Shown here: piece after piece, positions 26,127 to 54,428 of the stretch
Layout of the letters: every line of letters begins with the position of its first letter
How positions within the stretch are numbered: position 1 is the first letter of the stretch
NCBI GenBank assembly: GCA_964016885.1
Contig: OZ024759.1
Coordinates: forward strand, 11,222,001-11,286,000
Length of the DNA stretch: 64,000 nt
Reading direction: 5' to 3'
Source of the DNA: Eledone cirrhosa
Lineage: Eukaryota
Position numbers and translations under genes: made by a program
Notes under the pieces: model-generated
Database searches by the model: none
What the model saw: the letters and a program-made list of their open reading frames with translations, nothing else
What the model was told of the DNA's origin: nothing

Positions 26127-26920
26127 ATCGTTGGGGAGCAGAGTTTTTAAACATGCCTTCCAGTGGGTCCTCTCAGAAGCAACCATCTCCAATTGATCTG
26201 GCTGGATCCCCAAGTTAGAGCAACCGAGCTCATGGGTGTTATTGCTCGACAGATTTTACTGGTGAGACTCGGGTAGAACTGGATCAAGAGGGTTAGATAA
26301 CATCTCTGTGTTCTCTGATTTCAAATCATGCCAAGGTCAACTTTGCTTTTCATCCCTTTGGAGGCTCATGGCTTAGTGGTTAGAGCATTGGGCTTGCAAT
26401 CGAAAGGTTGTGAGTTCAATTTTCAGACCGGGTGATGTGTTGTTTCCTTGAGCAAGACACTTTATTTCACATTGCTCCAGTTTACTCAGCTGTAGAAATG
26501 AGATGATAGGGACTGGGGTCCCTATCATTCCACTGCAAAGTGGTCGTGTAGGTGCCACGGCAAAAAAGCACTCAGCCCACACTGTAAAGTGGTCGTGGAG
26601 GTGCCATGGAAAAAAAAGCACCCGGCACTCACTGTAAATGAGGTTGGTGTTAGGAAGGGCATCCAGCTGTAGAAATCAAGCCAGAATCAGTTCCCGTCCT
26701 ACACTTGCAAGCAGGGAAAAGCGGACGTAAAATGATGATGATGATGATATATATATATATATATATATATATCATGCCAAGGTCAAATTTGCTTTTCATC
26801 CCTTTGGAGGTACATGGCTTAGTGGTTAGAGCATTGGGCTTGCAATCAAAAGGTTGTGAGTTCAATTTTCAGACCTGGTGATGTGTTGTTTCCTTGAGCA
26901 AGACACTTTATTTCACATTG
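26127..26920 (+). mobile_element. Duplicate of composite 664-1238 (SINE A at 26360-26746) plus a partial re-duplication at 26772-26920
   Basis: Same junction CATCCCTTT/GGAGG as at 896. Confidence 0.85.
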
Positions 26921-26982: not shown

Positions 26983-27053
26983 TATTTTATCTGATGAAAA
27001 CATAAATGTTATTGCATGATGATATTTGTTTTTGAAATGTGCATAATAAAATA
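26983..27053 (+). ncRNA. Type I hammerhead ribozyme
   Basis: TATTTTAT-CTGATGA-long stem II-GAAAT-GTGC-ATA-ATAAAATA; 8-bp stem I. Confidence 0.8.
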
Positions 27054-38071: not shown

Positions 38072-38612
38072 AAGTATGAATATTTTCGAAACAGCGAGCG
38101 GGTTTGAAATTATTATAAATGTAAGCTATCGCCGTATTTTGACTAAAGAAATTAAAGAAATTATTTAGCCTGATAGTGGGGTTAAGAACCCTCGGAGAAA
38201 TGGAAAAAAATGAGTATTGACGTACATGGGAGTCGACTCTCCTGTACGCCAATACTCATCTTTTTCCATTTCTCCGAGGGTTCTTAACCCCACTATCAGG
38301 CTAAATAATTTCTTTAGTCAAAATACGGCGATAGCTTATATTTATAATAATTTCAAACCCGCTCGCTGTTTCGAAAATATTCATACTTGACATTACAGTC
38401 GCTAAGTTTATAGCTTCTAATTTGAATGGAAAAAAACGGGTGATGTGTTGGTGTAAATGGTAGCACAGTGGTCTGGATAACCAAAGATGTGGGTTCGACT
38501 CCCATGTACGTCAATACTCATCTTTTTCCATTTCTCTAAGGGTTCTTAACCCCACTATCAGGCTAAGTAATTTCTCTAGTCAAAATACGGCGATAGCTTA
38601 CATTTATAATAA
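38072..38612 (+). mobile_element. Inverted plus tandem (262-bp period) element carrying a tRNA-like gene
   Basis: Palindrome 38072-38388 centred on TCGA at 38233-38236; direct repeat 38233-38350 and 38495-38612; (TA)n on both sides. Confidence 0.75.
38442..38513 (+). tRNA. 72-nt tRNA-like cloverleaf (anticodon position GGA, atypical) with T5 terminator
   Basis: Acceptor GATGTGT/GTACGTC, D GTGT/GCAC, anticodon TGGT-CTGGATA-ACCA, T GTGGG-TTCGACT-CCCAT; TTTTT at 38523. Confidence 0.6.
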
Positions 38613-38628
38613 TAATATATATATATAT

Positions 38629-42225: not shown

Positions 42226-42547
42226 AAATCAGGAAAGAAGAGTGACACGGTTTGCTATACAATAAGGGCTTTATTCACATTGCTGACAATTGTTTCTCTG
42301 AACTGGTAGGTCTAGAGATCGCTACTCGCCTGTTTCTGCGTCAATCCATCACCAATTCATAGTTGTAACCAGTCAATTCATCAGAGCTAGCATTCTCGCT
42401 AGCTCTGATGAATTGACTGGTTATAACTATGTATTGGTGATTGATTGACGCAGAAACAGGTGGGTAGCGATCTCTAGACCTACCAGTCAGGAATGTGATT
42501 AAAGCCCTTTTTGTAAAGCAAACCGTGTCACTCTTCTTTCTTGATTT
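42226..42547. mobile_element. Head-to-head inverted Penelope-like pLTRs
   Basis: Palindrome around loop 42392-42397; the left arm holds a complete hammerhead, the right arm lacks GAAACAATTG. Confidence 0.75.
42282..42387 (-). ncRNA. Type I hammerhead ribozyme with extended stem II
   Basis: Minus: GCT-CTGATGA-..TGACTGG...CCAGTTCA..-GAAAC-AATT-GTC-AGC, then AATAAA; same stems I and III as 28103. Confidence 0.75.
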
Positions 42548-42844: not shown

Positions 42845-43365
42845 ATATATATATTTTTTTTTCAGCCCTTTTACCTAAACCTCATTTGCATACTCATCTT
42901 AATAATTTCTTCTCTTATCCCTTCACTATCCAAGGAAAACTTGAACCGTTAAGGTATATTATCCTTTATGTCAAAATTTATAAAACACACTTCGTATTTT
43001 ATCTGATGATAGCGTACCAAAATTTTGGTACTCTTGAAATATAATTATTTCGTCCAAACCGAGGTTTGGAGTCTTCGGAGCAATTTTTCAATGATTGTTT
43101 ACATACATGACCTCCTTTCCAACACAAGAGATATACAGATACATATGTATATATCGATGCACAGTGGGGTGACATCCATTATAATATCTTACTGGTAATA
43201 AGGTAGTAATAAATTACTGTCTTTCACTGTTTAGGGTTTAAAATATATATATAACTATAAAAAGTTTTAGTATATACATAACCATAAATAGTATCCTTAA
43301 TACTATATATATATATATATTTTCCCGGAGAAACTAAGTGCATTCATGTATGTATATAAATATAT

Positions 43366-45312
43366 CATCATCACCGTTTTACATCCATTCTTCTACGCTA
43401 GCATGGGTTAGAGGAATTGTCCTGTATTAGGCAATGTTAGGTCAGGTGACCATGACATGCTCATACAGAACTGATTTTGGCTTGGTTTCTACAGCTGGAT
43501 GGCCTTCCTAATGCCACTGTCATACAATGAGTACTGGGTGCTTTTTGTCGTGACACCTACACAATCACTTTACAGTGAGTACTGGGTGCTTTTTGTCGTG
43601 ACACCTACACAATCACTTTACAGTGAGTACTGGGTGCTTTTTGTCGTGACACCTACACAATCACTTTACAGTGAGTACTGGGTGCTTTTTGTCGTGACAC
43701 CTACACAATCACTTTACAGTGAGTACTGGGTGCTTTTTGTCGTGACACCTACACAATCACTTTACAGTGAGTACTGGGTGCTTTTTGTCGTGACACCTAC
43801 ACAATCACTTTACAGTGAGTACTGGGTGCTTTTTGTCGTGACACCTACACAATCACTTTACAGTGAGTACTGGGTGCTTTTTGTCGTGACACCTACACAA
43901 TCACTTTACAGTGAGTACTGGGTGCTTTTTGTCGTGACACCTACACAATCACTTTACAGTGAGTACTGGGTGCTTTTTGTCGTGACACCTACACAATCAC
44001 TTTACAGTGAGTACTGGGTGCTTTTTGTCGTGACACCTACACAATCACTTTACAGTGTGTACTGGGTGCTTTTTGTCGTGACACCTACACAATCACTTTA
44101 CAGTGAGTACTGGGTGCTTTTTGTCGTGACACCTACACAATCACTTTACAGTGAGTACTGGGTGCTTTTTGTCGTGACACCTACACAACCACTTTACAGT
44201 GAGTACTGGGTGCTTTTTGTCGTGACACCTACACAATCACTTTACAGTGTGTACTGGGTGCTTTTTGTCGTGACACCTACACAATCACTTTACAGTGAGT
44301 ACTGGGTGCTTTTTGTCGTGACACCTACACAATCACTTTACAGTGAGTACTGGGTGCTTTTTGTCGTGACACCTACACAATCACTTTACAGTGAGTACTG
44401 GGTGCTTTTTGTCGTGACACCTACACAATCACTTTACAGTGAGTACTGGGTGCTTTTTGTCGTGACACCTACACAATCACTTTACAGTGAGTACTGGGTG
44501 CTTTTTGTCGTGACACCTACAGAATCACTTTACAGTGAGTACTGGGTGCTTTTTGTCGTGACACCTACACAATCACTTTACAGTGAGTACTGGGTGCTTT
44601 TTGTCGTGACACCTACACAATCACTTTACAGTGAGTACTGGGTGCTTTTTGTCGTGACACCTACACAATCACTTTACAGTGTGTACTGGGTGCTTTTTGT
44701 CGTGACACCTACACAATCACTTTACAGTGAGTACTGGGTGCTTTTTGTCGTGACACCTACACAATCACTTTACAGTGAGTACTGGGTGCTTTTTGTCGTG
44801 ACACCTACACAACCACTTTACAGTGAGTACTGGGTGCTTTTTGTCGTGACACCTACACAATCACTTTACAGTGTGTACTGGGTGCTTTTTGTCGTGACAC
44901 CTACACAATCACTTTACAGTGAGTACTGGGTGCTTTTTGTCGTGACACCTACACAATCACTTTACAGTGAGTACTGGGTGCTTTTTGTCGTGACACCTAC
45001 ACAACCACTTTACAGTGAGTACTGGGTGCTTTTTGTCGTGACACCTACACAACCACTTTACAGTGTGTACTGGGTGCTTTTTGTCGTGACACCTACACAA
45101 TCACTTTACAGTGAGTACTGGGTGCTTTTTGTCGTGACACCTACACAATCACTTTACAGTGAGTACTGGGTGCTTTTTGTCATGATGCCTACACAACCAC
45201 TTTACAGTGAGTACTGGGTGCTTTTTGTCGTGACACCTACACAATCACTTTACAGTGAGTACTGGGTGCTTTTTGTCATGATGCCTACATGGCCACTCTA
45301 CAGGGTGGACTG
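43366..45312 (-). mobile_element. RTE-tailed SINE (family C) carrying a 48-bp satellite of about 37 copies (43520-45300)
   Basis: SINE tail 43366-43515, then GAGTACTGGGTGCTTTTTGTCGTGACACCTACACAATCACTTTACAGT repeated. Confidence 0.92.
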
Positions 45313-46202: not shown

Positions 46203-46552
46203 AGTCAGTAGGCATCTCTAACAAAATACCCCCCCCCCCCCATCCACACCGCCCCTTCAATGTATAGTTATGTTGGTGCCACAACATCCAGTCTGAAACA
46301 AATGAGATCGTGTAGGTGTCACGACAAAAAAAAACACACAGTCCACGCTGTAATGTGGCCGTGTAGGTAACACGGTAAAAACCTCCCAGTCCCACACTGT
46401 AAACGTGGTTGGTGTTAGGAAGGGCATCCAGCTGTAGAAAACCCGCCAGACAGTCCTATGCGAGCAAGTCAACCACTCTTGCCTCAAGTGGGAAAACTCC
46501 CGTCCAAACCCATGCAAGCGTGTAACATGGACGTTAAACGATGATGATGATG
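46203..46552 (+). mobile_element. SINE family C (other copies about 28388-28545, 36787-36958, 46936-47104, 56212-56371, 59010-59390)
   Basis: GGTGTTAGGAAGGGCATCCAGCTGTAGAAA...CCCATGCAAGCG...GACGTTAAACG-(ATG)n. Confidence 0.8.
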
Positions 46553-48290: not shown

Positions 48291-48373
<83 letters not shown>

Positions 48374-48401
48374 TAGTTCCACAACAATTAATTCACCATT
48401 T

Positions 48402-48442
48402 CTGAGAACAGTTGTTTCACCTTAGTCGGATCCTCAGCTCTG
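48402..48442 (-). ncRNA. Minimal type I hammerhead ribozyme
   Basis: Minus: GAG-CTGAGGA-T-CC-GACTAA-GG-T-GAAAC-AACT-GTT-CTC. Confidence 0.7.
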
Positions 48443-48616
48443 TTTAAATGAGATTATATGGAAAAGGAAAACAATTAAATGAATATACATGTGCAGAAGG
48501 AGTTACTTCCTAAAGGGGATTCAACTCATGTTAGATCGATGCTAGGGAAACAACTGTAAAAACTCTGAATGTAATAGATTATTCATATTATTCAGTCCAG
48601 TGATTACCTTGGGTCG

Positions 48617-48811
48617 TCAGAAAGGACCTTTGAAATTACATAATAGGTGTTTTGAAACGTGTAGACACCGCGAGAAAAATTCATTCCTTTTATTTAGACA
48701 AGTGTTATTACGCAAACTCCTCAGGATATTGATTCTTTCTTCAATGCATAGCCCACAAGACAGATTCCCATTTCTGTAAGGCTTAGACTTAGTAATAACT
48801 TTCCATTGAAT
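48617..48811 (-). pseudogene. C-terminal fragment of a Penelope-like GIY-YIG endonuclease
   Basis: Manual translation IQWKVITKSKPYRNGNLSCGLCIEERINILRSLRNNTCLNKRNEFFSRCLHVSKHLLCNFKGPF*; not listed in the ORF track. Confidence 0.8.
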
Positions 48812-49344
48812 TGTTCTCAGAAATGGTGAATTAACTGTTGTGGAACTACTTCTACCAAACTCATAATATGGACTGAGTGCTCTACTACTACGGATATTAC
48901 CTGTATGTTGGGAGGTGACCAGTCACAAAAGGTACTCAGTACATTAGATTATAAAGGGTGAAAGGATAAAGATCCCATAACTCCTTGTGGAGTCTTAGAG
49001 GCACTGTCATAGAGCATGTCTAGGGCACTTTTAAACCTGGCAGAGCCCAACCCTCTCCAAGTCCAATAGATTATAGGCATATTTATATGAATGAAACAGT
49101 TCTAATCCTGTAGAAATCATCTATATAATAATTGTTTCTACTTTTGGCACAAGGCCAGCAATTATCCCAGTGCATTACTGGTACTTTATTTTATTGACCC
49201 TGTAAGGATGAAAGGCAAAGTTAACCTTGGCAGGATTTGAACTCAGAATAGCAAGGGCTGTAACTATGCGTTAAAGCATGGCGTCCGACCCTCTACCGAT
49301 ACTGCCAATCCAAATAATAACATATAGATATAACAGGAAAAGTA

Positions 49345-54108: not shown

Positions 54109-54155
54109 ATACGATAATTAAATAAATGGAAACTATATTTATAAAACCATATTTA

Positions 54156-54217
54156 TTTCATTATATATATTTCAGGGATATCATATTAACAATATGTTAT
54201 GCCTTCTTCAGACAAAA
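54156..54217 (-). ncRNA. Type I hammerhead ribozyme (mirror of 54236-54297)
   Basis: Reverse complement of the right arm. Confidence 0.75.
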
Positions 54218-54235
54218 TACAATATAGACAGTATA

Positions 54236-54297
54236 TTTTGTCTGAAGAAGGCATAACATATTGTTAATATGATATCCCTGAAATATATATAATGAAA
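54236..54297 (+). ncRNA. Type I hammerhead ribozyme
   Basis: TTTTGT-CTGAAGA-AGG..CATATT/AATATG..CCT-GAAAT-ATAT-ATA-ATGAAA, then AATAAA. Confidence 0.75.
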
Positions 54298-54428
54298 TAA
54301 ATATGGTTTTATAAATATAGTTTCCATTTATTTAATATCGTAAACATACTCCAAATACTTGTTGAGTGCTTTTATATCAGTTATAAATATTTACTCGTTG
54401 TAACCCAACATTTTAAATATAACTTTCC

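Follow-up and report, generated by a model that had tools for sequence, protein, structure and literature searches.

The locus studied here joins the end of a GIY-YIG endonuclease (EN) and a hammerhead motif to an inverted copy of its own 3' end, and it raises the question of whether that inverted copy begins at an RNA 5' end made by the ribozyme, as a first-pass annotation had suggested. It lies in a 64,000-nt stretch of DNA (the window) that is AT-rich, microsatellite-rich and animal-like, with repeats of seemingly cephalopod type. The copy is 530 bp long, without RT and unable to move by itself, and no second copy of the element was found within the window. In our judgement it is most probably a 5'-truncated Hydra-clade PLE copy whose inverted arm stems from two head-to-head cDNAs of uncleaved RNA. 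Its parts are listed in Table 1; signed positions are counted from the predicted cut.

Table 1. Features of the window copy and of three related copies that start at +1/+2
Feature	Position	Strand	Remarks
5'-truncated direct copy, PLE (very probably Hydra clade)	48372..48811	-	EN tail, 3' UTR, hammerhead; tail-less 3' end at +35 from cut
GIY-YIG endonuclease, final 64 codons and TGA stop	48617..48811	-	CxxC, E, LNKRNE, CxH
Type I hammerhead	48404..48440	-	core from 48437; predicted cut 48407/48406
Inversion junction, 3-nt microhomology	48809..48811		common to ORF (Ile codon) and palindromic stem III loop
Inverted arm	48809..48901	+	first base 4-7 nt ahead of cut; 48809-48850 mirrors 3' end
'Tail'	48851-48901	+	present at inverted-arm end only
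Tail hairpin, ACTC/GAGT version of GCTC-stem-NN-GAGCACT motif	48859..48881	+	inner stem decayed in window copy
(CT)n microsatellite and TA step at 3' insertion point	48292..48371
Related copy, start +1	G001:C639:9169-9201
Related copy, start +1/+2	G001:C61:10633-10683
Related copy, start +2	G001:C562 (L225)

Endonuclease tail and clade membership

The minus-strand reading of a GIY-YIG C-terminus was confirmed: 64 residues encoded by 48811-48620 show the pattern W..KPY..CGLC..E..LNKRNE..CLH and are followed by TGA at 48619-48617. A homology search with this peptide, which the annotation had named as a test, gave 1045 phmmer matches at E≤0.001 among 1.84 billion representative proteins, the top match having an E value of 5e-12 and 56% identity and the best matches being 55-56% identical. 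Among the best 150 of the 1045 matches, 128 contained the full CxxC-E...N.R.E...CxH pattern, and 97 of these 128 stop no more than 25 residues past it; the median number of residues after CxH was 14 in these homologues, and it is 13 in the window copy. Three long proteins in the same set of 150 (P0021, P0152 and P0158) carry an RT YxDD upstream of the tail and far from it, and all three have the CxCx5-7C linker, which occurred in 28 of the 150 overall; DKT/DKS was present in the two longest RT-bearing ones, P0021 and P0152. Two Cys between the GIY-YIG core halves were seen in none of the 30 proteins of this set with both halves; the window copy itself lacks the stretches in which such Cys, the linker and the RT motifs would lie. 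When the EN tail was compared with A2 by hhalign, the probability was 99.1. Pfam GIY-YIG was not detected for the peptide and was faint in 3 of 10 homologues scanned; the sole Pfam result for the peptide, an EGF match, was spurious. A weak, word-indexed search for longer relatives of the window element found none, nor were relatives found in viral contigs.

According to the parts of Craig 2021 (PMC8557442) used here, CxxC and CxH motifs flanking a conserved E and N mark the Hydra clade, which also has a C-terminal EN, canonical hammerheads, (TA)n targets, DKT/RWK in the RT and a CxCx5C linker, and no CCHH motif. Because the window element combines a C-terminal EN bearing the CxxC-E-N-CxH tail with a hammerhead, we are close to certain that it is a member of the Hydra clade of C-terminal EN+ PLEs. 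Hydra-1_Obim, Hydra-2_Amil and Penelope-x_HM share the C-terminal GIY-YIG with CxxC/CxH around E and N, and the clade further resembles the window copy in its type I hammerhead near the 3' end, its one-sided tail and an inverted 5' copy, which has been noted for Penelope-13_HM; TA-associated ends are likewise a trait of the clade and, in reads, of the window family. By eye, Hydra-1_Obim matches the window peptide at about 24 of 58 residues, and its hammerhead differs. The window family is distinct from these and is known without its RT; it is a new family within a known clade, and the locus is in itself unremarkable, as dead copies of this kind are numerous. The main text of PMC13282606 does not mention Hydra, Naiad or hammerhead.

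The motif had earlier been assigned to Naiad-clade PLEs, an attribution that has to be given up. Naiads are found in many invertebrates and have inverted ends, a tail and an apparent TA preference in common with the window copy, and 4 of the 10 LNKR matches in the supplement of Craig 2021 (PMC8557442) are Naiad or probable Naiad proteins. In these four, however, LNKR is followed by I or M just past the YxG core of an N-terminal EN, which is a different motif, and the other six matches are Hydra rows. As described in the same source, the EN of Naiads is N-terminal, a CCHH motif is present, a canonical hammerhead is lacking, and Sec codons occur in some; none of these traits was seen in the window copy, in which the EN ends at the stop and a canonical hammerhead comes next. 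Position of the EN and hammerhead together rule out Naiad identity, and we give a Naiad, possibly selenoprotein-coding, a negligible probability. The in-frame UGA that the annotation had wanted checked is missing, every one of the five Cys codons being TGY and the stop being the sole TGA; the Rfam scan gave no SECIS. Since the element is not a Naiad, the question of UGA and SECIS is moot.

Loose read ends behind 48811 extend the ORF (17 contigs in X2, 27 in X4), and the extension shows, by hand translation, the expected Hydra LKD motif. As these ends continue the ORF, the ORF supplies 48809-48811 to the junction and nothing further. A 93-codon open frame across the inverted arm is taken to be a chance one, homology ending at 48811-48814. 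Elsewhere in the window, a 266-codon open frame at 58191-58988 (+) resembles what we take to be the C-terminal part of an RTE-like LINE reverse transcriptase.

Hammerhead, inverted arm and junction

A structural scan also bore out the hammerhead, which had been placed about 175 nt after the frame and lies 180 nt past the stop. Its stems are formed by 48440-48438/48406-48404 (I), 2 bp (II) and 48415-48413/48410-48408 (III), a layout that agrees with the Hydra rows in File S2 of Craig 2021 (PMC8557442). In the family majority in reads, stem III is palindromic with a loop of AT (organism A) or GC (organism B), and position 4 of stem I is a C-G pair. The window copy has A-A at this position and also differs in loop III, and its predicted ribozyme is therefore probably weakened. 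Rfam reported no hammerhead at the gathering threshold or at E≤10. Free folding of the monomer does not yield a hammerhead (z -0.4 to -0.5), as expected of a dimer-type stem III, and says nothing on activity either way. Among the 80 related loci retained from 402 in metagenome contigs, 50 have a hammerhead no more than 700 nt past the stop; many of the remainder break off too early or had no parsed stop. The distance from stop to hammerhead was 32-530 nt with a median of 132 (49 related loci used).

Further hammerhead or core-only motifs of the window are located at 26991, 28109, 28991, 37799, 42384/42405, 43003, 46597, 54211/54242, 56122, 56478, 57388 and 60416, and probably represent 3' termini of further PLE families. 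Two head-to-head pairs, 42226-42547 and 54110-54342, have their starts upstream of the hammerhead core, and inverted arms are also present at 37647-37763/37883-37999 and 56964-57477.

Within the window, the inverted repeat is detected as two arms of 42 nt, 48372-48413 and 48809-48850, with 40 of 42 positions matching (BLAST E 1e-13). The 39-bp inverted copy described before holds as the exact-match part from 48812, but the arm goes past 48850: reads of other copies also cover 48851-48901 and, some 14 bases further on, reach (TA)n, which brings the arm to about 90-93 bp. Loose ends of reads were observed at 48862, 48868 and 48901/2. The ends of the family continue into (TA)n in reads, whereas the outer end of the window copy is without the last ~14 nt and the (TA)n, and may have changed since it was inserted. 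A single TA step next to (CT)n marks one end of the window copy, the other end has no such step, and no target-site duplication is discernible. A 'tail' at one end of insertions has been described in Craig 2021 (PMC8557442), and inverted 5' copies or pLTRs, one-sided tails and microhomology junctions are known from PLEs, including Adineta Penelopes (PMC8557442, PMC3846280).

The match of the arm begins at -7 if position -5 is taken to carry the family allele, and -4 to -1 are necessarily inside it. A start 4 nt before the GUU cut, as first read, is thus right as a minimum, and the microhomology permits up to 7. This position bears on the proposal that the arm was copied from the 3' cleavage product of the ribozyme, ending at the cut RNA 5' end. 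Such a product starts at +1, and as the arm holds -4 to -1 it is not simply a copy of that product: arm bases 48812-48815 lie on the upstream side of the cut, match at 4 of 4 positions and are not derived from the ORF. Hence, of the earlier idea that the inversion starts at or near the ribozyme-made end, 'near' stands, with the start no more than 7 nt from the cut, and 'at' does not. The extra four bases would call for an RT jumping the nick while both cleavage products were still paired, a variant that we regard as improbable. In Frangieh 2024 (PMC11167929), hammerhead mutants of a Poseidon PLE inserted normally in vitro and no RNA-seq reads starting at the cut are reported, which likewise speaks against a need for cleavage. 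The function of the hammerhead in EN+ PLEs is called unclear in Craig 2021 (PMC8557442), and processing by cleavage has been proposed by Cervera and de la Pena (PMC4209133), in the part of that paper used here without in vivo evidence.

We instead favour, at a little better than an even chance, a junction formed from two cDNAs of uncleaved RNA that had been started at the two different 3' sites and were then joined at the microhomology. The GIY-YIG of the element would nick AT-rich DNA beside the microsatellite. A first cDNA would be initiated at the start site ahead of the tail hairpin and end in the EN region at 48811; a second one would begin beyond the hairpin, cross the uncut scissile bond and stop in stem III at -4 to -7, after which the two cDNA ends would anneal at 48809-48811. 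What is directly observed are the EN tail, the hammerhead motif, two different 3' ends (one with and one without the tail), the junction position and the high-copy family. The wide scatter of head-to-head arm starts in related loci and the two RT start sites known from a Poseidon PLE (both below) speak for the proposal. Against it, we infer the order of events, and a single 3-nt microhomology is weak.

The junction could also have arisen at the DNA level, either by an EN nick at ATT in stem III of an existing pLTR or by a later microhomology-mediated deletion in which a longer head-to-head pair was trimmed to the present join. The junction reads ATT in both partners and lies across the symmetry axis of the palindromic stem III; 5'-ATT-3' is the favoured site of the PAc endonuclease, which is able to cleave its own pLTR (PMC11167929), and microhomology deletions are frequent in PLE copies (PMC3846280). 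Other head-to-head junctions, however, lie at scattered positions, and no empty or longer allele was seen among the listed read pieces, none of which spans the locus. We consider an origin of this kind rather unlikely.

Start positions in related copies

Few inverted 3' ends were present in the 80 metagenome loci, and head-to-head arms including the 3' end started at scattered positions from -945 to +81. A first census was overwhelmed by TA repeats and was repeated with masking. Covering all loci, it then yielded 43 rows, of which 31 lay from -100 to +35. After five reciprocal duplicates, five rows from self-inverted references and one row of another family had been dropped and three starts from earlier comparisons added, 23 starts remained in the final census. 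The comparison of inversion starts across copies, suggested by the annotation, had a divided outcome: three starts lie at +1/+2 and 20 elsewhere. Many of the related copies are on long contigs of G001, which is filed as a bacterial bin, and appear to be animal-like DNA within it; the same kind of misfiling is reported in Craig 2021 (PMC8557442). Hydra-type PLEs are contained in four bins filed as bacteria (G001-G004; 27 matches in G001), as probable animal contamination.

The three +1/+2 starts represent three families from the one host bin (Table 1), and two of the positions were hand-corrected for reference differences. The copy in C562 is a mini-insertion that runs from +2 to the tail end, with TA repeats on both sides. 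Under a uniform null over 135 positions, p was 0.005 for +1/+2 and 0.014 for +1..+3, and in wider windows 0.05 for +1..+5 and 0.08 for -3..+3, the +1/+2 width having been fixed after two of the cases were seen. As many as 41% of random draws have three starts in some 2-nt window, and the result counts only because the cut site had been named beforehand. In the window family, one join at exactly +1 leads from 48693 to 48816 (one contig in X1 and one in X2, both from a single sample), with an orientation that appears to be sense-to-sense. These four cases speak for copying from a cleavage product, whereas the 20 starts elsewhere speak against it, and for the arm of the window copy we hold this origin to be improbable. 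The starts of the three related copies are a hint that such ribozymes may well cut in living animals.

Other arm starts readable in the family reads are at about -14, -13, +6 and +48 to +56 (from 15 of 77 joints and 12 of 22 spacers shown). Two further related copies start at -5 and at -7..-10; together with the window start within 7 nt of the cut, they raise the possibility that it is the ribozyme fold, and not chance, that determines where the arm starts. The start at -5, in G001:C628, adjoins an unrelated repeat and not its own ORF, so that this copy does not share the architecture of the window copy. An apparent +8 start was an artefact, its reference being itself inverted. A group of seven starts occupies -47 to -37, close to where the ribozyme begins on its 5' side. 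In five loci (L245, L064, L046, L062 and L121), starts are located 6-15 nt ahead of the hammerhead core, where stem I has its 5' limit; this is possibly a transcription start or RT stop.

Tail hairpin and abundance of the family

The GCTC-stem-NN-GAGCACT motif was found 40-68 nt past the cut in 25 of the 42 sufficiently long loci (hairpin loci among L004-L080) and in 17 of 20 related families, compared with 18 of 8400 shuffles and none of 236 upstream windows. The inner stem covaries: with a 2-nt 3' bulge, 45 of 51 of its cells pair (17 families), other registers giving 5-23, and none of 5000 partner shuffles did as well; all these figures lean to the favourable side, the pattern having been drawn from the same loci and the families being related. 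ACTC/GAGT in the window arm is a double change that preserves pairing. The tail-less copy ends 3-7 nt ahead of the hairpin in nine hand-picked pairs, and the gap is 9 nt in the window. A second hairpin occurs further on in 5 of 17 family representatives. As a genome-wide marker the loose pattern was discarded, since it is unspecific (in G002-G004 controls were about as frequent as matches), and the pattern is therefore meaningful only at its place after the hammerhead.

The hairpin is visible in the consensus sequences of Craig 2021 (PMC8557442), without comment in the part of that paper used here. For the Poseidon PLE, two RT start sites flanking the tail have been shown in vitro in Frangieh 2024 (PMC11167929). 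Poseidon PAc of Anolis resembles the window element, as interpreted here, in its AT-rich targets and in a tail whose two flanking RT start sites lie at a stem-loop 3' of the hammerhead; it belongs to a different clade, and the conserved GCTC/GAGC stem is a feature of the candidate hairpin on the window side. By analogy with PAc, the tail hairpin may act in RT binding or initiation.

Tentatively, and at somewhat less than even chances, Hydra-clade hammerheads could cleave in vivo, with the 3' product being reverse-transcribed and inserted, and the tail hairpin could be what the RT recognises and what fixes both 3' ends. The same reading, held just as guardedly, would include a class of arms and mini-insertions from +1/+2, with further stops in stem III as in the window copy. 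If true, this would be genomic evidence for PLE ribozymes acting during transposition and would name a cis element for the whole clade. Should starts pile up at +1/+2 genome-wide, in vivo cleavage would be readable from assemblies alone, and the tail hairpin is a specific element open to mutation in RT assays. The value of the locus lies in the test that it prompted and in these two modest, testable leads on PLE mechanism. Neither the +1/+2 starts nor the hairpin was found in the literature searched; Arkhipova 2006/2017, Lunse 2017 and the Frangieh supplement may cover them.

Four read runs from two organisms (A and B) were compared at 85% likeness. Family sequence was present in 1356-2166 contigs per run in three runs and in 5322 reads in the fourth; the window family is high-copy in both organisms, read depth as such giving no copy number. 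Depth is greatest at the 3' end of the element. Peaks far above the ORF depth were seen at 48414-48455 and 48876-48896, and a joint 48434/48869 was present in 446 reads of X5; together they point to a very abundant short non-coding derivative with hammerhead core and tail.

Among other repeats of the window, a tandem array with a period of ~96 bp (~43350-45250) is related to an inverted stretch at 46306-46411. Additionally, Rfam revealed tRNA-like heads at 38109-38613 and 26808-26877, the former sitting in a threefold inverted and direct repeat that is probably SINE-derived.
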